A DNA stretch of 64,000 nucleotides. Source: Candidatus Aenigmatarchaeota archaeon. Its GTDB lineage: Archaea > Aenigmatarchaeota > Aenigmatarchaeia > QMZP01 > JAFGSV01. The stretch is taken from positions 24,543 through 88,542 of the forward strand of contig JAFGFG010000009.1 in the NCBI GenBank assembly GCA_016931255.1, read 5' to 3'. The translations under genes and the position numbers were made by a program. This document shows, piece after piece, positions 25,857 to 51,483 of this stretch. Position 1 is the stretch's first letter; each line of letters begins with the position of its first letter. The notes under the pieces are model-generated. The model was not told the DNA's origin, did not search any database, and saw only the letters and a list, made by a program, of their open reading frames with translations.

Positions 25857-26924
25857 CTATCTGCTTTTGGGCGGTGCGTATCTCGGGGGCTCACCAGGCT
25901 CGTCGTCTTTCTGAGGTTCCGGTGCTTCCCTGGCCTTAGGCTTTTCAAGCGGATTTTCTGTCATAACCTTCTTCTCAGGAGTCTTCGGAGGCTCGGGAAC
26001 AGGAGCAGGCGACGAAGCGAACTTCATCTTTCTTATGGATTCAATCATGGGGTTCAGCGAGCTTTTTACAACCTCTTCAATGGAGTCGATTCTTGCGTTG
26101 GTTTCCTCTATGCTTTCTTTCTGAATACCTATATCCTTTTTCAGGTTCATCACCTCATCTGGTGATGATGCCCCGCTCTGGGATGATGAATTCTTCATAT
26201 CACTTTCAATTTTCTCAAGTCTTTCTTCCAGATCGCTGAACCTGACAGCTATTTCTTTCATTTTTTCATCAGCTATCTCTTCAGTGAGCTCCTCGATGTC
26301 TCTTCTTCTGCGCTCCTTGAGTATCCTTGTTCTGTCATCCTTGTCCTTTGGTAGCGGCGATCTTGCAAAAGGCAGGGGTTCGAGTTCATCCCTTGGCACG
26401 GGAGGCGGACCCATTCCGGTGGAGTCTTCCATCCTGTCAATAAAAGCATCAGGTCCCATTTTCCTTTCTTTCGGCACATCGTCGATGTCATCCATGTCGT
26501 CAAGGTCATCGTCCCACTTGGTTGGCGCAAACTGATTCTTTGGTGCAGCAGGCGGCATATTGAATCCCCTTGGTGAAAAAGGCTCGTCACCCGTCATATC
26601 ATCAATTTCCGGTTGCTGAGGCGATGGCTGTTCTGGAGACATTGGCGGTATTTGTCTGGGCTGAAGCGGCCTCTGCGGCTCCTGTGGCATTGCAGGCATC
26701 TGTGGAACTCCCTGGGCCGAGCCAGAAGAACCTGACCTCATGGCGTCCTTCATTGCGCGGTCAACCTCTATGGGGCTGAATCCGTCCTCTCTGAGTGTTT
26801 TTACAATCTCCGGTTCCGAGAAGCCCTGAGAAGACATGGAAAGAACTTTCTGAGTGGGGACACCCCTCCCCCCGGCGGCTGGTGCCGGTGGCGCATTACC
26901 CTTCTTTTTCCCCAATCCTAACAT
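25857..26924 (-). CDS. Pro/Asp-rich disordered protein with N-terminal helical domain and coiled coil
   Basis: GFSEPEIVKTLREDGFSPIEVDRAM; low-complexity centre; DIEELTEEIADEK coiled coil. Confidence 0.7.
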   Translation of the reverse strand: MLGLGKKKGNAPPAPAAGGRGVPTQKVLSMSSQGFSEPEIVKTLREDGFSPIEVDRAMKDAMRSGSSGSAQGVPQMPAMPQEPQRPLQPRQIPPMSPEQPSPQQPEIDDMTGDEPFSPRGFNMPPAAPKNQFAPTKWDDDLDDMDDIDDVPKERKMGPDAFIDRMEDSTGMGPPPVPRDELEPLPFARSPLPKDKDDRTRILKERRRRDIEELTEEIADEKMKEIAVRFSDLEERLEKIESDMKNSSSQSGASSPDEVMNLKKDIGIQKESIEETNARIDSIEEVVKSSLNPMIESIRKMKFASSPAPVPEPPKTPEKKVMTENPLEKPKAREAPEPQKDDEPGEPPRYAPPKSR

Positions 26925-26967
26925 AATCAGTACCGCATTTATAATTACTTTCATCTCTACTTAAAGA

Positions 26968-27354
26968 TTACTCAGGTGCCTTATCTGGCTGCCCTGCAAG
27001 CCGTGGGAGGATTGACTCGAACAGCTTTACTGTCTCCTCAACCCTCTTCAGCTCACTCTTCTTTACCATGAACTGGAGCTGCTTCACAACCTCCTTCAGT
27101 GTGTTATTGACTGTATTCGTTTTCTCGTCGAGAGCTGTCATCTTTTCTTCAATACCCTTCAGCCTGACATCAAGTGATTCAAGCTTTCCTGAGAACGATT
27201 CATCAAGAGAGCTTATCCTGCTGGTGAGAATCCTTTCCCTTTCCTCAATGAGCCTGAGCCTCTTTGTGTTGTCGTTGACCCTTCCGACGATTTCGTTGAC
27301 TATCGGCGCTCCGCCCTTCTTCTTTCCTGAAGACTGCTCATTCATGACAGGCAT
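26968..27354 (-). CDS. coiled-coil protein
   Basis: Heptad-rich RLRLIEERERILTSRISSLDE...ELKRVEETVKLF. Confidence 0.7.
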   Translation of the reverse strand: MPVMNEQSSGKKKGGAPIVNEIVGRVNDNTKRLRLIEERERILTSRISSLDESFSGKLESLDVRLKGIEEKMTALDEKTNTVNNTLKEVVKQLQFMVKKSELKRVEETVKLFESILPRLAGQPDKAPE

Positions 27355-27439: not shown

Positions 27440-29686
27440 ATGGCTTCAGGCGAATACACGTATGATGAAGACGAGCAGAAGCTCAGGCTCAATTATCTCG
27501 GTTCTGCTTTTGGCGCGAGTGTGGAGGATTATGCCGAATGCATGGCAGATGTCATAGACAAGATTCTCGAGGTCAAGAGCGTCAGGACAATAATACTGAC
27601 CAAGGACAGGGAATACGAGTACGGTCCGGACCAGACTAAGATGCTTGTGGAGATATCCAATGTCATAGAGGATGTCGTCCGTGAGAGGCTCACAGGAAGG
27701 ATAAAGGCAGCTGACAACCTCCAGAAGCGAATGATACCCGAGATGAACGCGCGTGTTCAGGAGATTGTGCTGAACCTCCTGAGGCGGGACCCCATAGGCG
27801 CCTATGTCGAGGTCATACGCGAGATGAGGCGCGTCAAGATAAAGGCAAAGCATACCAATCAGAAGAGCGTTTATGATTTCTACGTGGACTATCTGAAGAA
27901 TGTTCTCAATGTGCTGAAGACCAAGCTTGAGGCAACACAGATAATAAAGCTCGCAAAGCCTCACATAGCCGGATATACGCAGGGCGACAGGTCTCTCTAC
28001 CGTGAGATGTTCGTTCCGAGCATACGGCCTAACTTCATGCTCACCCGTTACATGATAACACCTCCTGAGAACGGCAGGTCTGTCAAGAGGTACAATGTAG
28101 GCGACACGGAAGTGGAGATTTTCAAGCTTCCTGACAGGGCTGAATACTTCTACTATGTTCTGCCTCCCGAGTTCATTCTCAGCGAAGAGAAGTATGCTGT
28201 GCTGGATTCCGCGCGGAGGTACATGGCTACCCATAGGCCGAAGGATGCTGAATTCGTCAGAACAGGAAAAATACGCGAGGTCTTCTTTAGCATAGGAAGG
28301 GACATGATACGGGAAGTGGCCGACCAGCAGAGGGTGCACCTGACATCAAAGGACATCGAGCAGCTTGCCACCATACTTACAAGGTATACAGCAGGCCTTG
28401 GCGTTCTCGAGATACTGCTTGCTGACGAGAAGATTCAGGACGTGTACGTCAACTCTCCTGTTGAGTCACAGCCCATACTGATAAACCATTCGGAGTTTGA
28501 GGAGTGCAGGACCAATCTCATACCGACGCAGGATGATGCCGAGGCATGGGCTACAAGGCTGAGGATGCAGTCTGGAAGGCCTCTGGACGAGGCCAATCCT
28601 GTATTGGACACTGATGTGTCTGTTCCGGGAGGGAATGCAAGGTTCTGCGTAATCACGAGAACGCTGTCTCCGCATGGCCTTGGCTTTGCCATAAGGAGGC
28701 ACAGGGACAAGCCATGGACGCTGCCGCTTTTCATAAACGCCAAGATGCTCACGCCTCTGGCTGCCGGCACACTTTCATTCCTCATAGACGGCACAGCGAG
28801 CATGCTGGTCGCAGGTGGGAGGGGCGCAGGTAAGACATCCATGCTTGCGAGCATAATGCTTGAGATACTGCCGAAAACAAGGATTGTCACCATAGAGGAT
28901 ACACTTGAACTGCCTGTGGACCAGCTCAGGGACATAGGATATAACATCGAGCGCCTGAAGTCCCGTTCTGTCCTGACAATGGTGGAAACAGAAGTGGCCT
29001 CGGACGAGGCTCTCAGGACTGCGCTAAGACTTGGTGATTCTGCGCTGGTTGTGGGCGAAGTCAGGTCAACGGAAGCCAGAGCCCTGTACGAAGCCATGAG
29101 AATAGGTGCGCTTTCCAATGTGGTTATGGGCACAATCCACGGCGAATCAGCTTATGGTGTCTTTGACAGGGTCGTGAATGACTTGGAAGTTCCCATGACA
29201 TCATTCAAGGCCACTGACATAATTCCCATATGCAAGAGCCTCCGTTCTGCTGACGGTCTCCACCGTTTCAGGCGAATGACAGAGATAACAGAAGTCCGCA
29301 AGAAATGGGAAAAGAACCCTGACAAGGAAGGCGGCTTCGTCAACCTTTTCGAATACTCCGCAAAAGAGGATGAGATGAAGCCTACGGATACACTTGTCAA
29401 CGGCGAATCCGAGACACTGAACAGGATTTCAAGCTACGTCAGGGAATGGCACGGCGACTGGGCAGCTGTGTGGGAAAACATAAAACTCAGGGCTGACATC
29501 AAGAAGGCCATGGTGGAAATGAGCATCAGGACGAAACGGCCTGAACTGATGGAGGCGGAATGGTGCGTGAAGTCGAATTCCATGTTCCACCTTTTCTCAG
29601 AAATCACGCAAAAGGATGTCGGGGCAGTTGAGGCAAAGACAGTCTACGATGAATGGCTCAAGTGGTTCAGGAGCAGCATAAGGTAA
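27440..29686 (+). CDS. type II/IV secretion / pilus assembly ATPase with long N-terminal extension
   Basis: AGGTGA RBS; GGRGAGKT Walker A, TIEDTLEL, LRLGDSALVVGEVRS, GTIHG. Confidence 0.93.
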   Translation: MASGEYTYDEDEQKLRLNYLGSAFGASVEDYAECMADVIDKILEVKSVRTIILTKDREYEYGPDQTKMLVEISNVIEDVVRERLTGRIKAADNLQKRMIPEMNARVQEIVLNLLRRDPIGAYVEVIREMRRVKIKAKHTNQKSVYDFYVDYLKNVLNVLKTKLEATQIIKLAKPHIAGYTQGDRSLYREMFVPSIRPNFMLTRYMITPPENGRSVKRYNVGDTEVEIFKLPDRAEYFYYVLPPEFILSEEKYAVLDSARRYMATHRPKDAEFVRTGKIREVFFSIGRDMIREVADQQRVHLTSKDIEQLATILTRYTAGLGVLEILLADEKIQDVYVNSPVESQPILINHSEFEECRTNLIPTQDDAEAWATRLRMQSGRPLDEANPVLDTDVSVPGGNARFCVITRTLSPHGLGFAIRRHRDKPWTLPLFINAKMLTPLAAGTLSFLIDGTASMLVAGGRGAGKTSMLASIMLEILPKTRIVTIEDTLELPVDQLRDIGYNIERLKSRSVLTMVETEVASDEALRTALRLGDSALVVGEVRSTEARALYEAMRIGALSNVVMGTIHGESAYGVFDRVVNDLEVPMTSFKATDIIPICKSLRSADGLHRFRRMTEITEVRKKWEKNPDKEGGFVNLFEYSAKEDEMKPTDTLVNGESETLNRISSYVREWHGDWAAVWENIKLRADIKKAMVEMSIRTKRPELMEAEWCVKSNSMFHLFSEITQKDVGAVEAKTVYDEWLKWFRSSIR

Positions 29687-29721
29687 TTTTTTTCTTTAAA
29701 GAAAACGAACAAATAATTAAC

Positions 29722-31821
29722 ATGTCGTTTTTCAGCAGGAAGAAGAAGGCTCCTCAGGCACCTGCTTACAGCACCGGCCAGCTTGATCCCAGAATGATAA
29801 ACATCTCATCAAGGGAGTACAGGCTTTACCGCAGCAAGTCGGAATTAAGGCTGAACTGGTATGAGCAGCTGGCCAAGTTCGCTGTCGGCATAATAAATGT
29901 GAGTTTTGACAAGAAGACCACGGATGACATAAATGCCGCAATAGACTTCACAGGACTGCGCATAAAGCCGAATGCGCCGACAGCTCTGTTCCTGATGAGC
30001 ATTATATTCTTCTCGTTCCTCGGAGGATTCCTGTTTGCGCTGAGGATAGTCCCGACAGCCTATGGAGTGATTGCATCAGTGATACTCGGGCTTGCTGTCG
30101 GGTACTTCCTGATGTCGTATCCGAAAAGCCATATGAAGACGCTCCGCATACAGGCAAGCTCGCAGGTCGTCCTTGCGATACTCTACATGGTGGTGAGCAT
30201 GAGGATATCGCCGAATGTCGAGCGCGCGCTGAGGTTCACGTCGTCCAACATATCAGGCATGCTTGCATGGGACATGAGAAGGCTCCTGTGGGACATAGAG
30301 ATGGGAAAATACTACTCAGCCAACGAAGCGCTTGCGAATTACATCGTCAAGTGGAAGCCTGAGAACGAGGAATTCTCGGAAGCGCTGAGAATGATAGTGG
30401 ATTCGCAGAGCCAGATCCAGGAAAAGGCTGAAAAGACTTTGGACGAGGCGCTCAGGGTTGTCCTTGAAGGGACGAGGGACAGGATGAAGCACTATGCGCA
30501 GGACCTTCAGATGCCTGTCACCATGATTCACATGATGGGCATAGTCCTTCCGATACTCGGCTCTGTGATGGCTCCGATGGCAGCAATTTTCCTGTCAGAC
30601 ATGATTACGCCATGGCATTTCCTTGCCGGATACGACATACTGCTGCCCATTCTGCTTGTGTGGTTCATAAACAACACGCTGAGCAAGCGTCCTGTGACAT
30701 TCTCAAAGATAGACGTCTCGCAGCATCCGAGCCTTCCGCCGCCGGGAAGCTTCATGATCAGGAGCGGTAAGAAGAGGATAATAGTGCCCGCATTACCCAT
30801 AGCGCTCCTTGTGGGGGCCCTCATACTAATAATGCCTGTGCTGTATTTCGCTGAGCATTCAGAATTTCTCATAGTCCCGATGGTCGATGACGGCAGTGGA
30901 AACATGGTGCCGTCTGAAATCCAGGACCCGGCTCCGGATACGACTCTCCTTATGTCCATACTGATAACAGTAGGAGCCGGAGCGTCGCTGTCCATATACT
31001 TCCTCCTCTCCAATCTCCAGCGCTCGCGAGTCGAGGCCACTGTATACAAGATGGAATCTGAATTTGAACTGGCTCTTTTCCAGCTGGGCAACAGGATATC
31101 CGGCGGCACACCTCTGGAGATAGCTGTTGAGAAGGCTGCTGTGGATGTGAAGGACATGGAGATTTCCAATCTCTTCCAGATTGTCCTGAGGAACATGCGC
31201 AACTTCGGGATGACATTCGAGAACGCGCTGATGAATCCCCAGAGCGGCGCGCTGAGATTCTACCCGAGCAGGCTGATACAGAACGTGATGAGAACCATAA
31301 CAGACACCGCCAGGAAGGGCGTGCAGTTCGCTTCGGAATCCATGCTCACTGTATCCAAGTACCTGAAAAGCGTGAGGGAGACACAGGAATACATGAGGAC
31401 GCTGCTTTCTGAAACCACGAGCAGCATGCAGTTCCAGGCTTATGGAATGGCACCGCTCGTGAGCGGCCTCATAGTGGCAATGTCCAGCGTCATCATACAG
31501 ATCATAGGATTCCTCGGCACCAGGCTCAACGAGTTCGGCCTGCAGGACAGCTTCGGCATAGACCCGAGCTCTATACTGGGGTCATCAAGTGCTGTGACCC
31601 CCGCGATGTTCCAGCTCATAATGGGAACGTACCTCATAGAGGTGATAATAATCCTTGCCATGTTCGTGACCAAGGTCAACAGGGGGGATGACAAGTCGAG
31701 CCAGTGGCTGCTGGCCGGAAAGATGATATTTATAGCTGTGATAATATACTCCATGGTTGCAATAGGCTCAAGTATGATGTTCGGCAGCATGATAGAGGAT
31801 GCGATGAGGACACTCGCGTAA
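29722..31821 (+). CDS. TadC/GspF/ArlJ-like pilus membrane platform protein (two fused repeats)
   Basis: Directly follows the ATPase; ILYMVVSMRISPNVERAL and LFQLGNRISGGTPLE repeats; many TMs. Confidence 0.82.
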   Translation: MSFFSRKKKAPQAPAYSTGQLDPRMINISSREYRLYRSKSELRLNWYEQLAKFAVGIINVSFDKKTTDDINAAIDFTGLRIKPNAPTALFLMSIIFFSFLGGFLFALRIVPTAYGVIASVILGLAVGYFLMSYPKSHMKTLRIQASSQVVLAILYMVVSMRISPNVERALRFTSSNISGMLAWDMRRLLWDIEMGKYYSANEALANYIVKWKPENEEFSEALRMIVDSQSQIQEKAEKTLDEALRVVLEGTRDRMKHYAQDLQMPVTMIHMMGIVLPILGSVMAPMAAIFLSDMITPWHFLAGYDILLPILLVWFINNTLSKRPVTFSKIDVSQHPSLPPPGSFMIRSGKKRIIVPALPIALLVGALILIMPVLYFAEHSEFLIVPMVDDGSGNMVPSEIQDPAPDTTLLMSILITVGAGASLSIYFLLSNLQRSRVEATVYKMESEFELALFQLGNRISGGTPLEIAVEKAAVDVKDMEISNLFQIVLRNMRNFGMTFENALMNPQSGALRFYPSRLIQNVMRTITDTARKGVQFASESMLTVSKYLKSVRETQEYMRTLLSETTSSMQFQAYGMAPLVSGLIVAMSSVIIQIIGFLGTRLNEFGLQDSFGIDPSSILGSSSAVTPAMFQLIMGTYLIEVIIILAMFVTKVNRGDDKSSQWLLAGKMIFIAVIIYSMVAIGSSMMFGSMIEDAMRTLA

Positions 31822-31848
31822 TTTATACCATAGTTACCAATACTAATT

Positions 31849-34737
31849 ATGATTCTCAAGGGAGTCCTCGGAACTGAGATGACGCTGGGGAGCTTCACCA
31901 AGCTGCTCATGGTCGTCTTTGTAATGATTGGATTCACGCTCTTCATAACAGGCGTTGCCACGAACATGAACGAGACGACCAGCAAGGCCTGCCAGAAATA
32001 TCCGGAGCTTCCTTTCTGCAGTGGAAGTGAAGATGACATTTCAGCATTAAATGACAAGATTGCGGTGCATTCCACACAGGCTCTCGCATGCGCGATAAAA
32101 AGCGAGTGGCTTGGAAGGTCGCAGGAATGCGCCGTTGGAATAAACGACCTTCGCAATAGTGACGATCTCGCACAGCTTTCTGGAATGGACCTCAGTGACG
32201 AGGATTTCTACATTCCCAGTGAATTTGCCAAAGTCGAATGCCATGCGGTAACCACAGTCGAGAATCCCGGAAAATCCAGAATAATAGAATATGATGGAGG
32301 CATAGCCAGCGACAATGTCTGCTACCAGTACGTCGAGGGCACAGGATGGATGTGGAGTGACTGTGATGAGGAACTCCTTCCATTGTCAGACCAGCACCCC
32401 CCCGGCGTGAACAATCTTCCCCTTGTCCACGACTATTTCAGGGACAATGTCATTGCTTTCGGTAATACAAAGACCGAATCGTACAATTACCTTCTGGGGC
32501 TTTTCGAGGGAACGCTGAACGGCAATAACTATGCAGTGCTTGACGACAGCGGGAAGAGGCTTGTTTACAATGATGACACCGAGAAGATATCCAACGACAG
32601 GATAAGAGTGTGGCATTCCATGTCATTGGAGGAATATGAAAGCTCTTCATGGGCAGATAAGATTGCCAATGGAAAAGGAGGCTTCTGGGAAGGAGATGAC
32701 GACAGAATATTCGTGGAATTGATTGAAAGGTCTGGTCCTATTTATATGACATCGGGAACAGTGATCCATAAGCTTTATGAGCAACTGGATTATTACACTC
32801 CGGGAACTGCAGTCACGCTTGCAACCACGACATGCAAGGTGAGCGACTTCTACCTGCCCCAGGATTTTGACCAGATAAGGATATTGGGAATTACCATGGA
32901 TGAGCCGAGAGCATGGGTCGCAGGTTTCGGGGACCCTGAATACATCGTGTACTGGCAGGACTTCCCCCAGGGAGAAGACTATTCATGGACAAGCCTCGGC
33001 ACATGGCTTGATTCTGCACTTTTCGTCTTCTTTGCAGGAGCTCCTCTTGGCGCAATGGTAAAAGGCACAAAATACCTTATCAAGGGGGTCGGGAAGACAG
33101 TGATAAGCGAGGCAGGCGGCGCATTGGCATCAAAAGGAGATGATGTGATTTCATCCATGTTCAAAACGACCTCAGCAACAGACGAATCCATCCAGTATAT
33201 AATATACGAAGAGGGCGTGACCAAGGCAACAAGAAGGGCAGTCCTCACAGAAGCTGTCGAGAAGGGGTTCTTTTCCAAGGTTGTCACCAATATGAACAGC
33301 TACTACAAGGGACCGAGCACCACGTGGCTGTTCACCAAGGCTGGCGTGCTGACCGGGGCTGCCTGGGCGGCTGCCTACATTGACAGCCTCAATGAGAAGT
33401 TTATGAAGCAGAAGTCATCGATGGTCCTGAAGATTCCATTCGCTGACCCGCAGCTTTTCATGATAGAAGAGATGGCATCAGCGCCTGCTGACACGTCTTA
33501 TGACATATTCGGACCGGATACGTATCTCGGCCGCGAATCCGGCTCATACCCGCTTGGCATTGTCAGGCCTGTGATGCTCGACAAGACAAGCACCATCACG
33601 CTTACGGATGGAGGAGAAGGCCTTCAGAAGGATACGCTGTTCTATCTTGCATCGCCATGCCTTGCAGACCTTGACATAAAAAGGGAAACCATCTACTGCA
33701 GCAAGTATCTGTATAACTCAGCTGACCAGACATTCACGTGTTCAGACCCTATCTCAAGGGAAAGCGCGGAGAAAATGAAGGCACTTGGTTTCGAGGGTGT
33801 CAAGCCTTGCGGCTCTGCGCCTATAACTCTTGACGCTTTCCAGAACAACAGGCTTTTCAATGACAACAACAACGACGGAAAGTGGGATGAGGTTGTTGTC
33901 TATGGGCTGATAAATGAGATAGACTGGCTGAAGATAAGGGATATAGACTTCGACGGGACCTTCGACGGCTATGAAGCCAAGATAGGCAACAATATCATTG
34001 TATCCACTGGTGAGAAAACAGGAAAGATAGACATGGGGCAGGACGGCACGTTCGACTACACGTTCACCATCGTTGACAGGACATATGAAGTTGCCGGTTA
34101 TACAACAGAGATGGAGATAAAGGACATGTCCGGCAATTCTGTCAGCAATTCATGGTCATATCGAATGCAGGCGAAGGACCTCGTTGTATTCAGTGCGGTG
34201 GACAAGGAAAACATACTTCTGGGGCTTCCCATCGCCAGCGGCACCAATGTTGAAGATATGGAATTCACATTCCTTCACGGGACAAGTGCTGAATTCAAGG
34301 ACCCAGCAGACCCCGGCCCGCATCCGCTGAAGATAACGGATACCACAGGTGACGGTAAGATAGACACATTTTCAATGGGAAGGATGAGGCTTCTTGTCAG
34401 GGACACAACAGGGGACGGCTACTGGAATCGCTATGATGAGGACGATGACGGTCATCCTGATGTCTACGATTACGACAGGGAATACGGCACCATATACAGC
34501 CAATACTGCAGTATAGAAGGCATCACGATCACACCTGAGCTGAAGGAAATAGGCAAGGGGAATAATTTTTGCTACACCAGAATAAAAGAAGGACAAGCCA
34601 CAGCAATAATGGTTGGGTCTGCTGTTTTTGGAATTGTACTGGAGCAGTTTACAGGTGGCGTAGCGTCAGCAATCGTGGTAGGCATAGTCAATACTGGAAT
34701 CGCGTATGCACAGATGCAGGTCAAGAACTGGCCGTGA
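31849..34737 (+). CDS. giant pilin-like protein with Ca-binding DxDxDG-type repeats and hydrophobic hairpins
   Basis: MILKG|VLGTE then TM (class III-like, Glu at +5); DNNNDGKWD, DIDFDGTFD, DMGQDGTFD, DTTGDGKID, DTTGDGYWN, DEDDDGHPD. Confidence 0.65.
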   Translation: MILKGVLGTEMTLGSFTKLLMVVFVMIGFTLFITGVATNMNETTSKACQKYPELPFCSGSEDDISALNDKIAVHSTQALACAIKSEWLGRSQECAVGINDLRNSDDLAQLSGMDLSDEDFYIPSEFAKVECHAVTTVENPGKSRIIEYDGGIASDNVCYQYVEGTGWMWSDCDEELLPLSDQHPPGVNNLPLVHDYFRDNVIAFGNTKTESYNYLLGLFEGTLNGNNYAVLDDSGKRLVYNDDTEKISNDRIRVWHSMSLEEYESSSWADKIANGKGGFWEGDDDRIFVELIERSGPIYMTSGTVIHKLYEQLDYYTPGTAVTLATTTCKVSDFYLPQDFDQIRILGITMDEPRAWVAGFGDPEYIVYWQDFPQGEDYSWTSLGTWLDSALFVFFAGAPLGAMVKGTKYLIKGVGKTVISEAGGALASKGDDVISSMFKTTSATDESIQYIIYEEGVTKATRRAVLTEAVEKGFFSKVVTNMNSYYKGPSTTWLFTKAGVLTGAAWAAAYIDSLNEKFMKQKSSMVLKIPFADPQLFMIEEMASAPADTSYDIFGPDTYLGRESGSYPLGIVRPVMLDKTSTITLTDGGEGLQKDTLFYLASPCLADLDIKRETIYCSKYLYNSADQTFTCSDPISRESAEKMKALGFEGVKPCGSAPITLDAFQNNRLFNDNNNDGKWDEVVVYGLINEIDWLKIRDIDFDGTFDGYEAKIGNNIIVSTGEKTGKIDMGQDGTFDYTFTIVDRTYEVAGYTTEMEIKDMSGNSVSNSWSYRMQAKDLVVFSAVDKENILLGLPIASGTNVEDMEFTFLHGTSAEFKDPADPGPHPLKITDTTGDGKIDTFSMGRMRLLVRDTTGDGYWNRYDEDDDGHPDVYDYDREYGTIYSQYCSIEGITITPELKEIGKGNNFCYTRIKEGQATAIMVGSAVFGIVLEQFTGGVASAIVVGIVNTGIAYAQMQVKNWP

Positions 34738-34767
34738 TTTTTTAACGAGCAAACCCAAGTAATATCC

Positions 34768-34947
34768 ATGGAAGTCACAATGGGGGTTGTCATAACAGCC
34801 ATAATAATTCTTGTAGCAGGGCTTGTCTTTGCCACTCTCATATTCGGCTGGAGCGGTGATGCCCGTTTATGGATGGAAAGCGTGATTTCTCCATTCCAGG
34901 ACAGCCTCACCGGCGACAGGGTCACGGACCAGACCGTGAAGCCTTAA
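34768..34947 (+). CDS. 59-aa pilin-like membrane peptide
   Basis: Manual ORF MEVTMGVVITAIIILVAGLVFATLIFGWSGDARLW... Confidence 0.55.
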   Translation: MEVTMGVVITAIIILVAGLVFATLIFGWSGDARLWMESVISPFQDSLTGDRVTDQTVKP

Positions 34948-34986
34948 GGTGCATATTTTTAAGTAATCCCGGCCATAATTATAAGC

Positions 34987-35298
34987 ATGAAAGGACTTTC
35001 GATGACGCTGAGCATAGTCATTGTGGCTATAGTTCTTCTCGTGACAGCCTTGGTTGTACTTACGATATTCGGCGGGCAGATGTCAAGATTTCTGAGCATT
35101 TTTGGTGGAGTTCAGGATGAGGCAGTTCTGCAGAGTGCATGTAATCAGAGATGTGCATCCTATTGCATGGGTCATCTGAATGACAACCTGAATGCATATT
35201 CTTGGACAAGCATGGGTTCAGTTAAGGATGCCAATGGAAAAGATGCACTGTGTTCCGATGTAATGAATGGAATATCAGACCAGTGCACATGCCTGTAA
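34987..35298 (+). CDS. pilin-like protein (candidate major pilin)
   Basis: MKG|LSMTLSIVIVAIVLLVTALVVLTIF; Cys-rich small head; own TATA-like box. Confidence 0.75.
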   Translation: MKGLSMTLSIVIVAIVLLVTALVVLTIFGGQMSRFLSIFGGVQDEAVLQSACNQRCASYCMGHLNDNLNAYSWTSMGSVKDANGKDALCSDVMNGISDQCTCL

Positions 35299-35334
35299 TT
35301 CTTATTTTTATTTTCTGTTCTTCATAACAGTTGT

Positions 35335-35988
35335 ATGAAGGCTTCATTTCCCGGCATCAATACGTGGCTATGGACGATTCTTACCATAATAGTGGTCGCA
35401 ATGGCTCTGTACTGGGCAATGGGCCAGTTCGACAACATGGAACTGTCAAAAGCAACAGGAAGCACGGACCTTGCTATAGACACGGTCGTCTACTCAGAGG
35501 CGTATCCCCAGGTTTCCCAGAGCCAGATGGTAAGATACCTTCAGGATAACGGTGGGGAGCAGCTGAAGGACAAGGGACTTGCATTTTACAGGCTCGGTGT
35601 CCAGTACAATACTGACCCGGCATTCGCTGTGGCTGTCTCAAGGAAGGAGACATCGCTTGGGAAGGACACGTGCCAGCACATAAGCAGTGACTGCAACAAC
35701 TTCTTCTGCATCAAGGACACTACTGGAAATAGTCCCTGCGGCATATGGGCATCATATGCAACGCCTGAGGACAGCATTGATGCGTTCTACAAGCTTATTG
35801 AGTATTACAAGGAAAGGGGGCAGGATACCATAAGCGAGATTGCATGCGGTCCTGGCTCAGGGTTCAGCCACAGCTCAGGTGATTACTGCTACTGCGAGAA
35901 GGGAGGCTCTTTCTGCCCTACATGGGTAAGCGGCACGTCAAGCGTGCCTGCATTCACAGCGGAAATCCGTAACTATATGGCAGTATGA
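35335..35988 (+). CDS. pilin-like protein with GH73 glucosaminidase / lysozyme-like domain
   Basis: MKA| then TM; YNTDPAFAVAVSRKETSLG...NNFFCIK...YATPEDSIDAFYKLI. Confidence 0.72.
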   Translation: MKASFPGINTWLWTILTIIVVAMALYWAMGQFDNMELSKATGSTDLAIDTVVYSEAYPQVSQSQMVRYLQDNGGEQLKDKGLAFYRLGVQYNTDPAFAVAVSRKETSLGKDTCQHISSDCNNFFCIKDTTGNSPCGIWASYATPEDSIDAFYKLIEYYKERGQDTISEIACGPGSGFSHSSGDYCYCEKGGSFCPTWVSGTSSVPAFTAEIRNYMAV

Positions 35989-36014
35989 TATATTAGACCA
36001 GTGCAAATATTATT

Positions 36015-36131
36015 ATGGGAAAGATGAAGGCCATAATCGCTGACATGGGAATGGGTATGATAGAGCTTATCCTGACAATAGCAGTCATAGCGATAATAAC
36101 AGGCTATGTCATAATGATGATGTCGTCTTAA
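36015..36131 (+). CDS. 38-aa minimal pilin-like peptide
   Basis: Manual ORF MGKMKA|IIADMGMGMIELILTIAVIAIITGYVIMMMSS*. Confidence 0.55.
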   Translation: MGKMKAIIADMGMGMIELILTIAVIAIITGYVIMMMSS

Positions 36132-36161
36132 GTTTTAAGACTGTTTCGCCAAGAATAATAT

Positions 36162-36776
36162 ATGAAAAAGGGAAACGAACTGATGGCGAAGCCCCTCATG
36201 GCAGTGATGAGCCTGATCCTTTTCATCATGGTGCTGGTTTTCATGTATATCCAGCTCTCTTCAATCCTTTCTGGACCCTGCTGGAAGGAGACAATGAAGG
36301 GGCTTGAATTCTTCAAGAGGGAGACAAACGACGACCCAAGGCTCGTTATGGACCCTGAATGCATGGAAAAGACAATCTTCACTTCCAGTCCCGTTGTCTG
36401 CAAGCTGGCGTGCAGCAGGATTGATGACGGGGAGAGGATGAGGGAGTGCTCGGCCAAGTGCTCAGTCAATGCTTCCGACAGCGGAAAGACATTCATAATA
36501 GCTGTCCCACTGGACAGGGGGATTCTTAAGAGAACATCGCAGGCTGTAAGCAATCGCAATGTCGAATGGATATTTCCAGACAAGATGGAGGTTTTCGTTG
36601 CTGACTGTACAATAAGCGACCTGGCAGGATTCACCGGCGAAGACGGGAACAGCGTCTGCACGAAGGACGGCAATTCGTGGGAATGCTTCCCACAGGAAGA
36701 ATCTGCGACATACCTGCTCAAGATGACAGTCAGCACAGGAGACATTTGCACCATTGAAGGGCTAAGGACTGTTTAG
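36162..36776 (+). CDS. pilin-like Cys-rich protein
   Basis: MKKG|NELM then TM; many Cys. Confidence 0.65.
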   Translation: MKKGNELMAKPLMAVMSLILFIMVLVFMYIQLSSILSGPCWKETMKGLEFFKRETNDDPRLVMDPECMEKTIFTSSPVVCKLACSRIDDGERMRECSAKCSVNASDSGKTFIIAVPLDRGILKRTSQAVSNRNVEWIFPDKMEVFVADCTISDLAGFTGEDGNSVCTKDGNSWECFPQEESATYLLKMTVSTGDICTIEGLRTV

Positions 36777-36789
36777 CGTTTGTGGTCTT

Positions 36790-37224
36790 ATGGAAAGCAG
36801 CAGAAGCATGGTTGCGGTTATATTCGCCCTGATACTCGTAATGATATACTGGGTTGCGTGCGTATACGTACTTAACCCAATCCTTCGCGCGGAAAGCTCG
36901 TATGTTGAGCAGAAGATGTCATTCTACATAGATACGATGTCTTCTGTGAGCAGCGGCTCAGTCAAAGTGGAGATACCAAAGAACACTGTCAGCGCAATAA
37001 GCGTTGAGAAGCTCGCTAAAGGTGATTACGATGACTACACGATTCCTGAAGACGGCTGGTACGTGGTGGTAGCATACAGGATTGCAGGAACTCTGAACAA
37101 AGGCGTAAGCAGGATAAACTCGTACCCTGATGACGACAATATCAGAAAGACATTTACGTCCCCTGAAGACTTCTGCATAATAAAGAATGCGGACATGGAT
37201 TACGCGGTGGTGGGAAAATGCTGA
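36790..37224 (+). CDS. membrane-anchored protein, probable minor pilin
   Basis: N-terminal TM then beta-rich domain; operonic. Confidence 0.55.
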   Translation: MESSRSMVAVIFALILVMIYWVACVYVLNPILRAESSYVEQKMSFYIDTMSSVSSGSVKVEIPKNTVSAISVEKLAKGDYDDYTIPEDGWYVVVAYRIAGTLNKGVSRINSYPDDDNIRKTFTSPEDFCIIKNADMDYAVVGKC

Positions 37225-38051
37225 AAGGGCAGCTGGACATAGACATAGAGTTCATGGGAGGAACCATAATATTCGTGTTCTTCGCGATGATATTCTTCTC
37301 GATGCTTCTCTTCCCGATAGTCGCCAACAGCAGCGTGACATCAAGGGTTCACAATTCAGTGGACCAGCTCTCTTTCTCAAACCTAGCTGAGGCTTACATA
37401 GAGAGGGACTACGCCAACGAGAACGGAGTGCCGGATTTCCTCAGGATGTCTCTGGACACGAACCTGCTTAAATCGTTCCGTAATTTTGTGCTTTTCGAGC
37501 AGATTCCGTCAGGAAGGTTCATATTTCCAAAATATTCAGTGATGAGCATGAATCCGGATGATTCGATCGGGCATGATACATACGGCATAACGTGGACTGG
37601 TTTCGAGAACACAAAGCCCGGAGACATACTGATACCTGTCGGCAAGATTTCGCTTGTCGATGTCCACAGGAATGGCTCGCTTGTCATAATCGATGTGTAT
37701 GATTATCCCAGATGCTCGACAGGCACTTCAGAAAGAACCGGCCTCACAGTGTATCCGCTGTGTTCATCAGTGTCTGAAGCCAGTATCGTAGACTCGGAAT
37801 CAGCACGCGACGAACTCATACTTTCAGTCATAAACGGCGCATTTCCCGGCACGGTATTCTTCATGCGCGCAGCCAAAGACATAATGGTTTCTGACATCAT
37901 GCAATCCTTCAAGGGATATGTGAGCGCGACGTGCGAAGACAGCGGGGAACATAATGTTTGCATAAGAAAATTTAGTGATTACACTACTGCCACGAGGATT
38001 CATGTTGAAATTACTCCAGGAGGTTTCTTTTGGTATGAAAGCGGCGATTAA
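37218..38051 (+). CDS. pilin-like protein
   Basis: MLKG|QLDIDIEF then TM; overlaps both neighbours. Confidence 0.68.
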   Translation: MLKGQLDIDIEFMGGTIIFVFFAMIFFSMLLFPIVANSSVTSRVHNSVDQLSFSNLAEAYIERDYANENGVPDFLRMSLDTNLLKSFRNFVLFEQIPSGRFIFPKYSVMSMNPDDSIGHDTYGITWTGFENTKPGDILIPVGKISLVDVHRNGSLVIIDVYDYPRCSTGTSERTGLTVYPLCSSVSEASIVDSESARDELILSVINGAFPGTVFFMRAAKDIMVSDIMQSFKGYVSATCEDSGEHNVCIRKFSDYTTATRIHVEITPGGFFWYESGD

Positions 38052-39090
38052 CCTCATAGGCCTGGTGACAATAGGCACAGCACTGGCAGCTGTTATAATC
38101 ATGATACACGGTGTTCCGCATGCATCTGAGATGATCAAGGTGAACTCAGAGACATCGGCCTATATCAACGTCAACGACGAGACATCGAAGCTCATGCCGA
38201 TACTCGAATCAGGCAACATCAGCTTTGCTGCAATAGACCAGCTTGCATGCGATGTCCTCGGAATCACATACCACTATCAGGATGACTACATCGATGCTGT
38301 ACTCAAATCCATGGATGCAGGAATCATAGTTTACGCAGGAGGTATGGAGAAGAAAACATACGGCAATGAGAAGAGCGACAAACTGTTCGCTGATATACCT
38401 CTTCCCGGAGGGAAAATCGGAAACATCGCGCTCATGGTCGACATACCGCGGTCAATTTCAGAGGCAAGCTTCGGCTCCAATTGGATATGGCCGCTTGAGA
38501 CACTCACCGGTATGCATGTCAGTCACTGCTACGGCGAATACAGAGAGCTCAGCGACGGCTCAACCTATACGCATTCCGGTGTGGACCTTGGCGGTAATAT
38601 CGGAGACAATGTGCATGCCGTGGCTGACGGAGAAGTCATATTCGTATGCGATAATGATGAGAGAGAACTGACAGATGAGGAGAAGAACGCACGCATAAAG
38701 GGTAACTGCAGCGGATACGGTAACAACATAATAATAAAGCACGCTGGCCTGTATGCCAGATATTCGCATCTGCACACGGAAAATGGCGTGCTCGTCTCAG
38801 TAGGGGACATAGTCACGCAGAATCAGATTATTGGCAGGATGGGAAGCACGGGCCGTTCCTTCGGCGCGCATCTCGATTTCAAGGTGTATTCATACGAACC
38901 CTATGCCAATGGCGCGTCAGGATATGATGCCAATATAGACCCACTCTGCATGTACACGCCTGAATATCTTAAGAACGTAGTGAAGCTCACGTACGAGGAA
39001 AATGACAAGGACTGCCAGCAGTCGAAGCTGTGCATAAAGTACAGGCCGTCCATTTACACAGACATTGTCGAGGAGGACCTTACAATATAG
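38035..39090 (+). CDS. pilin-like protein with C-terminal M23 metallopeptidase domain
   Basis: MKA| then TM; WIWPL..., HSGVDL (HxxxD), AVADGEV, GYGNNIIIKH, YSHL, GSTGRSFGAHLDF. Confidence 0.88.
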   Translation: MKAAINLIGLVTIGTALAAVIIMIHGVPHASEMIKVNSETSAYINVNDETSKLMPILESGNISFAAIDQLACDVLGITYHYQDDYIDAVLKSMDAGIIVYAGGMEKKTYGNEKSDKLFADIPLPGGKIGNIALMVDIPRSISEASFGSNWIWPLETLTGMHVSHCYGEYRELSDGSTYTHSGVDLGGNIGDNVHAVADGEVIFVCDNDERELTDEEKNARIKGNCSGYGNNIIIKHAGLYARYSHLHTENGVLVSVGDIVTQNQIIGRMGSTGRSFGAHLDFKVYSYEPYANGASGYDANIDPLCMYTPEYLKNVVKLTYEENDKDCQQSKLCIKYRPSIYTDIVEEDLTI

Positions 39091-39098
39091 GTGATGCT

Positions 39099-39929
39099 AT
39101 GCGAAAAGGAAATGTTGCTAATATAGTGTATGCAGCGGGGTTGGTTATAATGTTTATTATAAGCGTTTATTACATTCTTCCTGCTCTCTCGAACACTGAT
39201 AAGAATCCTGTCATGGTGATGGTGGACAATACAGTTTACCTACTCAAGGATTCCGCAGAGGTCGCGAAGTCATTTGTGGACAATTCAGCCCGGTATTCAC
39301 TCTATCAGGCGGTGTATTCCAATTCACTGAAAGGCGGCATGAATCAGACAGTAAATGCTGTCAGCATAGGCGGTACAACATATGAGCTATGGTATGACGG
39401 TGCAGATGTCTCGCCTGACGAGGTGAGAATAAAGGAAGAGCTGCGCAAGACTTTCAGTCATTGGTTCTCCATGTATGTGGGGCGCAGTGTGATAAAGGCA
39501 TTTACACCCGTCATGCCACCGAAATACAACGATTTCACATTCAGGAATGACGGATACTACCATACAGGTGTTTTTGCTGAATCGGATGATGTCATGCGTG
39601 CACAGATGACAATGGAGAATGGCGATGCGCTCACAGTGTCTGTGAATGCTGACATAAACATGAGCCTTCCAATACCTTACTTCCTGCTTGTCAGTGAAGG
39701 CAGGGAATTCAAGGACGACATAAAGGGCCAACTGACAAACTGCAGCTCAGAACTTACGAAATCTTACGAAAAGCCAGAACTTATTTTCTCTTCAATGGCA
39801 ACAATTTCCGATGGATATTGCATAGTCGCTGTTGATATCACGAGCAAGAGGGAATTTTTAGTATGGGACGGAAGTGCGTCTTTCAAACCCATAACCCTCA
39901 GATTCGCCATGCGCCAGTCAATGAGCTGA
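39099..39929 (+). CDS. pilin-like protein
   Basis: AGGTGA RBS; MRKG|NVANIVY then TM. Confidence 0.65.
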   Translation: MRKGNVANIVYAAGLVIMFIISVYYILPALSNTDKNPVMVMVDNTVYLLKDSAEVAKSFVDNSARYSLYQAVYSNSLKGGMNQTVNAVSIGGTTYELWYDGADVSPDEVRIKEELRKTFSHWFSMYVGRSVIKAFTPVMPPKYNDFTFRNDGYYHTGVFAESDDVMRAQMTMENGDALTVSVNADINMSLPIPYFLLVSEGREFKDDIKGQLTNCSSELTKSYEKPELIFSSMATISDGYCIVAVDITSKREFLVWDGSASFKPITLRFAMRQSMS

Positions 39930-40018
39930 GAAACATTTAAAAAACGAGATTTCAACAATCTATTACTAAGGCTACCGTCATGGTAGATACAGCAATACAG
40001 TACTTGGAGGTGTTAGTA

Positions 40019-40504
40019 ATGGCAGAAGAACAGAAGATACTCGACAGCGTAATCGGGGAAAACAAGCCGGCTGATGAAGAAACACAGCCGGAGACAGAAG
40101 AAGAGGTTCATGAAGAGCCTGTAGAGGAAAAACCAGAAGAATTACCAGAGGAAGCGCCTGAAGAAAAGACAGTGGAGCAGCCCGTCAAAGAAAAGGTATC
40201 ACCAAAGCCCGAGGAAAAGGCTCCGGTGAGGGAGAAAATCGGCGAGAACGTGATATTCGTGGGGAAGAAGCCTACAATGAGCTATGTGCTTGCCGCAATC
40301 ACCCAGTTCTCCGACGGGTTTGATGAAATACACATCAAGGCACGCGGAAGGAGCATAAGCACCGCAGTCGATGTCGCAGAGGTTGTGAAGAACCGTTTCG
40401 TTCAGGGAGCCAGGACAGATGTAACCATCGGAACCCATGAGATAATCGACGACCGGAAGAACAAGCTTAATGTATCCACAATAGACATAGCAATCAGGAA
40501 GTAA
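40019..40504 (+). CDS. albA: DNA/RNA-binding protein Alba with acidic N-terminal extension
   Basis: IFVGKKPTMSYV...KARGRSISTAVDVAE...VSTIDI; GGAGGTG RBS. Confidence 0.92.
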   Translation: MAEEQKILDSVIGENKPADEETQPETEEEVHEEPVEEKPEELPEEAPEEKTVEQPVKEKVSPKPEEKAPVREKIGENVIFVGKKPTMSYVLAAITQFSDGFDEIHIKARGRSISTAVDVAEVVKNRFVQGARTDVTIGTHEIIDDRKNKLNVSTIDIAIRK

Positions 40505-40617
40505 GTCGTTGTTTTTGTTTTCAGAAGAGCTACGGCTTTGTTCAAATTAATAAACATCAGCTCAAATATATACTATTTCAGTCTGCTTTTTCAGGCGGAT
40601 AAAAAAGGGGTGATTTT

Positions 40618-41853
40618 ATGGAGAAGTTCAGGATTAAGAAGATAAAGGCAAGGGAGATTCTCGATTCCAGAGGCAATCCCACCGTTGAGGTTGATGTTTA
40701 CACAGGCGCAGGGCTTGCGAGAGCCGCTGTGCCAAGCGGTGCCAGTACGGGCAAGCACGAGGCTATAGAACTCAGGGACGGAGGAAAGCGTTATGGCGGA
40801 AAAGGTGTCCTGAAGGCTGTCGGCAATGTCAACGGGCTTATAGCAAAGCATCTCACAGGTCATGATGTATCGAACCAGGCGGCTATTGACGAGACGCTTA
40901 TTGAACTGGATGGTACTGAAAACAAGTCCAGCCTCGGTGCGAATGCACTTCTAGGAGTGAGCATGGCTGTATGCAAGGCTGCTGCAATGGGAAAGGGTGT
41001 ACCCCTGTACAGATACATAGCAGGGCTTTCCGGGAACAAGAAGATTGCACTCCCAACACCTTCGATGAATGTCATAAACGGCGGAGCCCATGCAGGAAAC
41101 AAGCTGGACATACAGGAATTCATGATTCAGCCTTTCGGCAGGAATTTCGCAGAATCACTCAGGATGAGCGCGGAAACCTACCACATCCTCAAGGGAATAA
41201 TCAAGGAAAAGCACGGAAAGGATGCCATAAATGTCGGCGATGAGGGCGGATTCGCGCCTCCCATCAACAGCGCCACCGAGGCTATTGAGATGATTATGAA
41301 GGCAGTGGAGGAAGCTGGTTATCACGGAAAGATTTCCCTTGCAATTGACTCTGCTGCATCGGCATTCTACAAGAACGGAATATACCATCTTGACGGAAAG
41401 AAGTTCGACACAGGAGAGCTCGTGGATTTCTACGCAGATTTGTCGAAGACATATCCTATTGTCCTGCTTGAGGACCCCTTCGAGGAAGAGGACTGGCACG
41501 GATTCGCAGAGCTCACGCAGAAGATTGGCAACACTATAGTCGTGATGGGAGACGACCTTCTTGTGACGAATGTGAAAAGGATAAACAAGGCCATAGACAT
41601 GAATGCAGTCAACGGCCTGCTGCTGAAGGTGAACCAGATAGGCACAGTCACAGAATCAATAAGCGCTGCAAAGCTTGCAATGGCTAACGGATGGAGGGTG
41701 ATGGTTTCGCACAGATCAGGCGAGACTTCAGACAATTTCATAGCTGATCTGGTGGTAGGGCTTAACACAGGACTGATAAAGACAGGCGCTCCGTGCAGGT
41801 CCGAGAGGCTTTCAAAGTACAACCAGCTTCTCAGGATAGAGGAGGAGCTCTGA
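40618..41853 (+). CDS. eno: enolase
   Basis: [42 protein letters not shown]. Confidence 0.98.
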
Positions 41854-47469: not shown

Positions 47470-47576
47470 GCGGAGATGGCCGAATGGCTCAGGCGATCGG
47501 CTGCAAGCGGTATGTATGCGTATTCGCCGATACCGTTAGAAACCGGTTCAAGGGGGTTCGATTCCCTCTCTCCGCT
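47470..47576 (+). tRNA. tRNA-Cys(GCA) with 35-nt intron at 37/38 (47507-47541); CCA not encoded
   Basis: Acceptor GCGGAGA/TCTCCGC, anticodon stem ATCGG/CCGGT, CT-GCA-A loop, TTCGATT T-loop, U discriminator. Confidence 0.9.
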
Positions 47577-50619: not shown

Positions 50620-51483
50620 ATGAATATAAGAGAATATCTGATAGAGATCATAAGCGTTGTGATAGGTGCAGCCATAATCGCAGCCAATGTATTATTCTTT
50701 CCGTCTGTTATTCCTGAGGACATATTCGCAATCATCCAGCCAATTATGAACCTGATAGGAGCCCTGATAGCCATAGTGCCGCCTGTTCTCATAATATACG
50801 AGAGATACAAGGAGAACAAGGACATGGAGGCAAACTTCACTGTGTTCATATCAGACTTCACAGAGGCAATAGACTCGGGAATGACACTTCCCATGGCACT
50901 GAAATACTGTGGCAACAGGGACTATGGAATTCTCACCAAGCACATAAAGAACATCACTTCACAGGTTGACTGGGGCGTACCTTTCAGGGAGGCACTCAGG
51001 CTGTTTTCAAAGAACGTAAAATCCCTTCCCATAAAGAGGGCAATAACAACCATAATAGAGACCTATAAGGTTGGCGGGAAGATTTCAGACACACTGAAGG
51101 CAGTTGGCGAGAGCCTGCTTGAGATAAACAAGATAAAGGCTGAGAGGTCTGTCTCTGTCCAGTCGCAGATACTGACATCGTACCTCATTTTCTTTGTTTT
51201 CATATTCATTCTCGTCATACTGCAGAGCTTCCTGATACCGGCACTCACACCAAAAGGTGATGTAACAGGCATCACATCGCTGAGTGGAACCAGTACCCCG
51301 GAGATGTTCCCTCCTGAGATATTCATAAACTTCATACTTGTGCAGGGATTCTTCGCAGGACTTGCAACAGGAAAGATGGCTGAAGGCTCTGTAATTGCTG
51401 GTATGAAGCATTCGATAGTTCTCATAGTCATAGGATACAGTATATTCTCAATAGCGGCGAATGTGCAGTTCAGCTTCATATGA
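50620..51483 (+). CDS. type II secretion F / TadC family pilus platform protein
   Basis: SGMTLPMAL, DYGILT, WGVPF, GGKISDTL, QGFFAGLATGKM. Confidence 0.9.
   Translation: MNIREYLIEIISVVIGAAIIAANVLFFPSVIPEDIFAIIQPIMNLIGALIAIVPPVLIIYERYKENKDMEANFTVFISDFTEAIDSGMTLPMALKYCGNRDYGILTKHIKNITSQVDWGVPFREALRLFSKNVKSLPIKRAITTIIETYKVGGKISDTLKAVGESLLEINKIKAERSVSVQSQILTSYLIFFVFIFILVILQSFLIPALTPKGDVTGITSLSGTSTPEMFPPEIFINFILVQGFFAGLATGKMAEGSVIAGMKHSIVLIVIGYSIFSIAANVQFSFI

Follow-up and report, generated by a model that had tools for sequence, protein, structure and literature searches.

Why would an archaeon that makes no peptidoglycan encode enzymes that cut it, and why among the genes of a type IV filament machine? 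This question is raised by an operon of a Candidatus Aenigmatarchaeota archaeon, a member of the DPANN group with a very small genome, located in a 64-kb stretch within contig C2 of its genome (hereafter the window, to which positions refer unless another locus is named). The operon comprises twelve genes, all on the forward strand (27440-39929), which encode an ATPase (P1), a platform protein (P2) and then ten N-terminally anchored proteins, among them a GH73-like glycosidase (P5) and an M23 peptidase (P9). A sequence-only reading of the window had proposed this arrangement and interpreted it as a pilus-type operon whose class III-like murein-hydrolase proteins are aimed at the bacterial wall. 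The ATPase, the platform and the ten co-oriented anchored proteins were all found in place, and synteny, the swapping of hydrolase modules among relatives and the lack of a Mur ligase supported the interpretation. Altogether, we give a probability of about 65% to the reading that a type IV filament machine (pilus or pseudopilus) of Aenigmatarchaeota displays murein hydrolases outside the cell against bacteria.

The premise of the question was examined at the level of the genome, which has 929,379 bases in nine contigs and is 93% complete and 0.04% contaminated. It gave no match to Mur_ligase_M, a family matched in 12 of 14 control genomes. This agrees with an archaeon devoid of its own peptidoglycan, as the sequence-only reading had assumed, and the target of the enzymes would therefore be another organism. 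Remodelling of the producer's own wall was rejected on the same ground.

Operon integrity, machine core and class III-like signals

A chimeric contig, named by the sequence-only reading as a way in which its proposal could fail, was ruled out. An independent assembly of the source run produced a single contig of 12,002 nucleotides (nt) that covered positions 28688-40689 with 0 differences to the window and had a depth of 16.5, compared with 15.8 on the flank. This contig, together with the synteny of the operon with Alba and enolase in relatives, shows that the operon is not chimeric. The flanks correspond to an ordinary archaeal chromosome, with Alba, enolase and phosphoglycerate mutase genes 3′ of the operon. 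Two metatranscriptome runs of the same study yielded only short contigs over conserved enolase motifs.

P1 matched Pfam T2SSE with an E value of 3.5e-16 (59.3 bits; cut-off, 24.9). It carries a lineage-specific N-terminal extension of ~290 amino acids (aa), and its first 320 aa were found as a single copy in 87 of the 91 genomes of the order, at 41-100% identity. P1 remained below the NCBIfam cut-offs of FlaI, for the archaellum (140.2 bits vs 550), TadA (126.5 vs 373) and BasE, for the bindosome (54.6 vs 1000). P2 shows ~10 hydrophobic segments and shares 66-73% identity with its family relatives. When aligned with the genome's own T2SSF proteins using hhalign, its residues 406-572 matched with a probability of 92% (E 6e-7). 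The first domain (residues 154-285) gave a sub-threshold match to Pfam T2SSF (E 0.0078, 16.6 bits vs 25.2), as did one of the five orthologues scanned (E 0.012; two of six copies in all), and a search of P2 against the PDB returned no match. The genome encodes one A24 prepilin peptidase (29.6 bits vs a cut-off of 26.5), which lies outside the operon (G000:C2:222479-222823, G000 being this genome). A secretion ATPase, a T2SSF-like platform, an A24 peptidase and class III-like motifs would, judged by sequence, place the system in the type IV filament superfamily.

The evidence for class III signals is a sequence motif, that is, a short basic leader, G or A at position -1 and a hydrophobic helix. 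K-G or K-A directly precedes the helix in eight of the ten anchored proteins (P3, P4, P5, s38, P6, P8, P9 and P10), exactly the count of the sequence-only reading. A loose version of the pattern was present in 47 of 1019 crude open reading frames (ORFs) genome-wide versus six of the eight larger operon proteins, and a chance origin of the operon's motifs is unlikely. To follow them among relatives, we used a census of 61 loci, consisting of the window and 60 loci from 60 genomes of the order chosen among the stronger matches listed. The [KR][GA] motif was kept in 58 of 61 P9 and 54 of 60 P10 orthologues. Similarly, K-G-Q/S was kept in nine out of ten P8 orthologues, and the N-terminus of P4, the top hydrophobic score in a genome-wide scan, was almost invariant. 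The N-terminus of s38 reads K-A in the window and, in relatives, K-G-Q with a Glu a few residues on. The genes are tightly spaced: P8 overlaps both P7 and P9, so its translation is probably coupled to theirs, and P9 and P10 are 8 nt apart.

Hydrolase modules and their carriers

P9 matched Pfam M23 with an E value of 7.3e-19, and its nearest solved relative in the PDB was zoocin A (2.6e-8). In Foldseek, its AlphaFold2 (AF2) model retrieved ShyA (4e-10), followed by LytM and lysostaphin; Pfam and Foldseek thus upheld the M23 peptidase of the sequence-only reading. Phage Gp16 with M23 and the cyanophage pre-ejectosome were also among the matches of P9. Residues H180, D184 and H245, which form the HxxxD zinc motif and the catalytic His, were invariant in the alignment with orthologues. 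For P5, a search of the single sequence against the PDB gave chance matches only; the family profile, built from ten homologues, matched pneumococcal LytB (E 1.2e-8), and precomputed annotation assigned PF01832 to eight of ten homologues. E105 of P5 was invariant and aligned with the catalytic Glu of LytB, which is Gln in the E585Q entry. The AF2 model (predicted local distance difference test, pLDDT, 75.3) consisted of a helix, a disordered linker and an enzyme, and retrieved LytB (1.6e-5), AtlE (8e-4) and also Atl glucosaminidases in Foldseek. Family profile, catalytic general-acid Glu and the lysozyme-like fold found by structure search therefore agreed on the GH73-like glycosidase claimed from sequence, the Pfam score by itself being sub-threshold. 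The genome has no M23 or GH73 gene outside the operon, and tblastn with the relatives' SLT, M15, Amidase_3, YkuD and GDSL modules found no other hydrolase modules in it.

Absence of this linkage in relatives would have spoken against the sequence-only proposal; we found the opposite. In the genus and the family, synteny extended over the whole cluster, starting with the divergent genes upstream of P1 and ending with Alba and enolase, and a core of P3-like, P4, P6-like, P9, P10 and Alba genes recurred in other families of the order. Within the order, 81 of the 90 other genomes had a match to the P9 profile, as had 152 of the 371 in the phylum; M23 proteins beyond the order were 600-2000 aa long and differed in architecture. 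A full-length carrier-plus-M23 match was obtained in ~38 of 91 genomes of the order, and P9 and P10 were adjacent in 59 of the 60 fetched loci. According to Pfam, the P9 position (n = 61) carried M23 in 40 loci, M15_4 in five, GH73 in two and GDSL, joined to M23, in one. The P10 position (n = 60) carried SLT (six), PG_binding_1 (five), Amidase_3 (two), GDSL (two), VanY (one) and YkuD (one). Among 101 upstream co-oriented anchored ORFs of 200-700 aa, 28 had SLT and five GH73, and the remaining Pfam matches were unrelated neighbours (UbiA, two; T2SSF, two; VTT, one). Local hidden Markov models found a peptide- or amide-cutting module in 46 of the 61 loci, a glycan-cutting one in 42 and both in 38. 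Catalytic motifs were largely intact: HxxxD in 39 of 40 M23 modules, E-S/T in at least 35 of 39 SLT modules and the zinc motifs in all five M15 modules. In addition, the P8 orthologues of two genomes (G002 and G003) are longer and include an SLT domain (E 9e-5 and 5e-4).

The same picture was obtained from a wider search, in which the P10 core matched 440 cluster representatives (E ≤ 0.001) among 1.84 billion proteins. The top 150 representatives included 41 members of at least 380 aa, which carried SLT (13), PG_binding_1 (eight), Amidase_3 (four) and one each of M23, M15_4, GH73 and YkuD, as well as PKD/fn3 spacers; the non-murein modules were GDSL (two) and an M64 peptidase (one). These distributions point to carriers that would act as a stable scaffold and to grafted modules, swapped between species, that are almost always murein-specific enzymes or binding domains. 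A GDSL/SGNH esterase was fused in one protein with M23 or Amidase_3 at two loci (L091:8920-10698 and L084:2366-4438), which suggests a role as peptidoglycan de-O-acetylase rather than as lipase.

How the modules are mounted could be followed on the P9 carrier. The window's genus has M23 behind the last carrier strand, and in most families the module sits ahead of it; the conserved strand D-I-P-L-P-G-G thus lies before M23 in the genus and C-terminal, after M23, in the other families. An insertion within the carrier in one group and an addition to it in the other point to repeated grafting. Bare P9 carriers of 140-190 aa, free of any module, were present in 13 of 61 loci, which is what one would expect if a pilin-sized module had served to receive the grafts; in this respect such an autonomous carrier would correspond to a modular pilin sensu Raynaud et al. 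2021. Co-folding of P9 residues 1-150 with P10 gave an ipSAE of 0.83 (runs 0.84, 0.82 and 0.83) versus 0.01 for the best of three controls. The runs shared at least 69% of contacts, and the partner pLDDT was at least 84. Among 80 solved complexes 58 attain this score, compared with two of 110 mismatched pairs; these counts are only rough because our own alignments were used. The predicted interface lies in the soluble domains, with the D-I-P-L-P-G-G strand as the main contact with P10. This model supports binding of the P9 carrier to P10, and the predicted pair resembles a minor-pilin complex. The P10 profile had no sequence match in the PDB.

Other genes of the operon and its surroundings

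The coordinates of the operon and of a second pilus locus are listed in Table 1. Some ORFs open upstream of the positions given there: at 29653 for P2, whose start is uncertain, and at GTG codons for P9 (37975) and P10 (39030).

Table 1. Genes of the hydrolase-bearing operon and of the second type IV pilus locus in the window.
Feature	Description	Position	Strand	Basis
P1	Secretion ATPase, PilB/FlaI/TadA superfamily, 748 aa	27440..29686	+	Pfam T2SSE
P2	Polytopic platform, two T2SSF-like domains, 699 aa	29722..31821	+	Profile match, hydropathy
P3	Giant Cys-/Asp-rich envelope protein, 962 aa, K-G class III-like N-terminus	31849..34737	+	
s59	Small anchored protein without K-G/A, 59 aa	34768..34947	+	ORF listing, tblastn
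P4	Candidate major pilin, 103 aa, 6 Cys	34987..35298	+	M-K-G then 25-residue hydrophobic helix
P5	Class III-like helix, disordered linker, GH73 N-acetylglucosaminidase domain, 217 aa	35335..35988	+	
s38	Class III-like mini-protein, 38 aa	36015..36131	+	ORF listing, tblastn
P6	Carrier-type protein, 204 aa, 10 Cys, K-G before helix, conserved P-C-W	36162..36776	+	
P7	N-terminally anchored protein, 144 aa, R/K-x in place of K-G/A	36790..37224	+	
P8	Carrier, 277 aa, begins M-L-K-G-Q	37218..38051	+	Orthologue alignment
P9	Class III-like helix, ~140-aa carrier domain, M23 endopeptidase, 351 aa	38035..39090	+	
P10	Carrier, 276 aa, K-G before helix, predicted P9-carrier partner	39099..39929	+	Synteny, co-fold
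Second locus	T2SSF proteins	49714-50619 and 50620-51483	+	
Second locus	Pilin_N pilins	51514-51948 and 51984-52418	+	
Second locus	PilB3-type ATPase	52423-54129	-	

The sequence-only reading had also drawn attention to a giant protein with pore-like hairpins. The giant protein, P3, proved real and conserved: its Cys residues and a motif were kept in relatives, and its C-terminal W-P was invariant. The hairpins were dropped, hydropathy (a hydrophobic segment in the centre and another one or two at the C-terminus) being their only support. No Pfam family was found in the window copy of P3 or in five orthologues, and the PDB profile search was empty; there was no usable Atlas match, and a word-based homologue search returned only four proteins, none of them beyond the lineage. 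P4, P6 and P7 likewise matched no Pfam family. P6 orthologues were found in ten loci, and P7 orthologues of 143-163 aa also in ten. Using tblastn, the small genes s59 and s38 were recovered at the same position in nine (E ≤ 1.4e-4) and five (E ≤ 2e-4) of 11 family loci, respectively.

The P1 of the window is intein-free. Its orthologue in genome G008 (L017:1730-5515) is split by an intein with a LAGLIDADG domain (Intein_splicing E 1.5e-28). ATPase frames of ~1,260-1,290 aa in seven genomes (G027, G020, G346, G021, G319, G333 and G324) and of 1,804 aa in G035 suggest inteins in several others. Relatives of P5 were present in nine public records, of which six are labelled Candidatus Aenigmatarchaeota, two uncultured archaeon and one uncultured Methanosarcinales archaeon. 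The contig with this last label (L040) encodes a P5-like GH73 protein with 50% identity over residues 68-187, and the label could reflect binning or a transfer.

Upstream of the operon, two divergent genes (25857-27354, reverse strand) encode a coiled-coil protein of 128 aa and a protein of 365 aa that has a weak CorA-like match. The pair was syntenic with the ATPase in five family loci and may belong to the system. Downstream, the Alba protein (39980-40504, forward strand) has an acidic Glu/Pro/Lys-rich N-terminal extension of ~85 aa, whose length differs among relatives (proteins of 97-215 aa). A second, separate type IV pilus locus occupies positions 49714-54129, and four T2SSE ATPases were above cut-off in the 0.93-Mb genome. 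Elsewhere, the window contains genes for RPA, ABCE1 and RtcB, and an AMP-phosphorylase-like gene (Glycos_transf_3 plus PYNP_C) that adjoins form III RuBisCO (43776-46555, reverse strand), a nucleotide-salvage pair often noted in DPANN archaea. Inside the RuBisCO ORF, ARAGORN placed a 99-nt tRNA-Arg (45448-45546, reverse strand), which is probably a false call. Rfam identified a 107-nt tRNA at 47470-47576 (forward strand) that ARAGORN missed, possibly owing to an intron.

Target of the enzymes and place among known systems

We infer signal cleavage, filament assembly, the position of the enzymes on the filament, their murein activity, the partner and the purpose of the system. The ten N-terminally anchored proteins would be inserted in the membrane, and the eight K-G/A proteins would be cut by the single A24 prepilin peptidase of the genome. 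The ATPase P1, acting on the platform P2, would then extract the subunits and join them into a polymer by way of their hydrophobic N-terminal helices. P4 would form the shaft, and P6, P8, P9 and P10 would be minor-pilin-like carriers, with P9 and P10 in complex. On contact, the GH73 domain of P5 would cut the bacterial glycan strand and the M23 domain of P9 the peptide cross-links, opening the wall locally. The bacterium could be a host, prey or a competitor.

Several observations weigh against this reading. Two of the ten anchored proteins, s59 and P7, have no K-G/A motif. The AF2 model of the P9 carrier has a pLDDT of ~40-60 (a helix at residues 2-31, then an alpha/beta region), a low confidence at which its pilin fold is putative. 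The carriers and P4 match no Pfam pilin family, whereas the pilins of the second locus match Pilin_N. In genomes outside family f1, and in G006 of the same genus, the ATPase gene is located away from the carrier cluster. As for the enzymes, the single P5 sequence scores below the gathering threshold of Pfam Glucosaminidase (26.2 vs 30.2 bits), and the HxH motif of P9 reads H-L-D, with Asp replacing the third zinc ligand His. Among the 40 M23 modules of the census, 34 had HxH, five HxD and one HxY. H-L-D recurs in G001 and G008 and H-L-H is found in G002 (G007 lies outside the alignment), so H-L-D may be a conserved variant metal site in which the Asp could bind zinc. The M23 share among the 61 loci is probably overestimated because the loci were drawn from the stronger matches listed. 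Eleven of the 61 had no hydrolase module at all, and the basic role of the machine therefore does not require hydrolases. Finally, Li et al. 2021 (PMC8407114; here and below, statements on cited papers refer to the available part of each text), the principal study of Aenigmarchaeota genomes, set bacteria aside as hosts and argue that the hosts are archaea, partly because these organisms have no lipid synthesis of their own. A bacterial host is thus less secure than a bacterial target, the lipid-dependence case weighing against the former and not against bacterial prey or competitors.

Part of these observations would also fit another arrangement, in which the N-terminal helices are ordinary signal anchors and the hydrolases are membrane-tethered ectoenzymes that lie beside pilus genes and are neither processed nor assembled by the ATPase. 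The AF2 model of P5, with only a helix, a disordered linker and an enzyme, is what such an ectoenzyme would look like, and the lack of detectable pilin homology in the carriers and the unlinked ATPase of most families go in the same direction. This arrangement is nevertheless improbable, since it would leave unexplained the [KR][GA] position kept in nearly all P9 and P10 orthologues, the fixed order of the genes, with P7-P10 overlapping or at most 8 nt apart beside the canonical small pilin P4, the ATPase and platform that head the same cluster in family f1, and the predicted P9-P10 contact in the soluble domains. Very improbable, in turn, is a target other than murein, such as the pseudomurein of a methanogen host, S-layer glycans or the producer's own envelope during machine assembly. 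GH73 and M23 folds could in principle act on other N-acetylglucosamine or peptide bonds, and one related record bears the Methanosarcinales label mentioned above (L040). However, the swapped modules include Amidase_3, M15_4, VanY, YkuD, SLT and PG_binding_1, and the genome has no Mur ligase. As families, the N-acetylmuramic acid (MurNAc)-L-Ala amidase Amidase_3, the D-Ala peptidases M15_4 and VanY, and YkuD, SLT and PG_binding_1 are known to need MurNAc or D-amino-acid stems, and pseudomurein has neither; pseudomurein or S-layer targets are therefore unlikely.

A rival that keeps the same machine and murein target differs in purpose, which would be antagonism or scavenging, with an archaeal host, if any. 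Hydrolases displayed on the surface or set free would serve to kill bacterial competitors, or to obtain muropeptides as nutrients from bacteria, whether living or dead. Bacteria are indeed killed by M23 and GH73 enzymes that archaea secrete (Strock et al. 2025, PMC12352652), the case for archaeal hosts and lipid dependence (PMC8407114) would fit, and the hydrolase-free loci and a module content that varies by species are as in weapon systems. Nevertheless, we regard it as doubtful. For scavenging, no MurQ etherase scored above cut-off (44 vs 302 bits, in a search confined to this catabolic gene), so there would be no obvious route to use MurNAc. As for antagonism, the locus is a chromosomal, syntenic, order-wide core, whereas archaeal weapon hydrolases are patchy and plasmid-biased (PMC12352652). 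In either case, a membrane-anchored, pilin-like display implies action by contact and not by diffusion. Beyond the display of murein hydrolases against bacteria, a bolder proposal is that this order of Aenigmatarchaeota lives on or preys on bacteria, drilling their wall by means of an enzymatic type IV filament with interchangeable hydrolase minor subunits. We put this forward as tentative, at somewhat less than even odds. If true, no archaeal machine dedicated to breaching bacterial cells would have preceded it, and cross-domain parasitism of an archaeon on bacteria would gain its first molecular handle.

The system is built from known kinds of parts, namely a type IV filament, modular pilins and archaeal murein hydrolases. 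In the Sulfolobus bindosome (Bas), an ATPase and a membrane protein of type IV filament kind would assemble non-structural class III-signal proteins at the cell surface. BasE is among the NCBIfam matches of P1, although at a score far below cut-off, and the cargo consists there of sugar-binding proteins and here of wall hydrolases. The phage-tail protein phi29 gp13 (lysozyme plus M23) and the FlgJ (GH73) and VirB1 (SLT) proteins of bacterial envelope machines are cutters mounted on a filament or tube that open peptidoglycan locally. Glycan- and peptide-cutting modules would similarly be mounted on a filament here, but those proteins cut the wall of the phage's host or, while the machine is assembled, that of the producing cell, whereas in our case the producer has no murein and the scaffold would be a type IV filament. 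The Kil apparatus of Myxococcus is a Tad-like machine, related to type IV filaments, for contact-dependent killing of bacterial prey. The comparison rests on the ATPase score, with P1 well below the TadA cut-off, and to our knowledge hydrolase-pilin fusions are not part of Kil. We also know of no cultivated DPANN archaeon whose host is not an archaeon.

Closer parallels come from the literature. As here, a pilin-sized N-terminal module bears a grafted functional module, in highly variable architectures, in the modular type IV pilins of bacteria (PilB and PilC of Streptococcus sanguinis; GspK; Raynaud et al. 2021, PMC8179133). The extra domain of GspK lies inside the pilin module, comparable to the M23 of most families here, which precedes the final carrier strand. 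Those pilins are bacterial and their grafts are adhesins, lectins and DNA binders, whereas the present ones are archaeal, carry hydrolases and have a putative pilin fold; the available text of that paper has 0 mentions of peptidoglycan hydrolases or archaea. Woldo (M23) and Danwoldo (GH73) of Halogranum are secreted peptidoglycan hydrolases that belong to the same two catalytic families, come from a murein-free archaeon and are aimed at bacteria (Strock et al. 2025, PMC12352652). They are soluble, Tat/Sec-secreted, equipped with peptidoglycan-binding domains, patchy and plasmid-biased, in contrast to the class III-like anchors and the order-wide chromosomal cluster described here, and the words pili and pilin are absent from the available text. 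Large SLT-domain surface proteins of Woesearchaeota and Pacearchaeota, taken by their authors as a clue to a bacterial host or prey (Castelle et al. 2021, PMC8204110; Vigneron et al. 2022, PMC9723730), are likewise murein-cleaving domains in DPANN archaea. They occur in other lineages, as single proteins of up to 3,000 aa, and the available parts of both papers contain no pilus operon, paired glycan and peptide cutters or module swapping on pilin-like carriers. A survey of archaeal type IV pili (PMC4858521) does not contain the terms peptidoglycan, M23, lysozyme, murein, DPANN or hydrolase in its main text, and a dark-matter review reports divergent pilins in DPANN loci (PMC6393860). In main texts, supplements being outside the search, we found no archaeal pilus operon described as encoding class III proteins that bear hydrolases, in line with the sequence-only reading, which knew of no described system with both activities as pilin fusions in one pilus operon.

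These findings describe a core, order-wide surface machine armed with enzymes that lack an archaeal substrate, and they suggest that an archaeal lineage physically attacks or attaches to bacteria. The modular-pilin idea would be extended to archaea and to catalytic, wall-degrading modules, and the order, with its murein hydrolase modules shuffled on one shared scaffold, would amount to a natural library of them. The question of whether some DPANN archaea attack or colonise bacteria becomes testable through defined proteins, motifs and probes.

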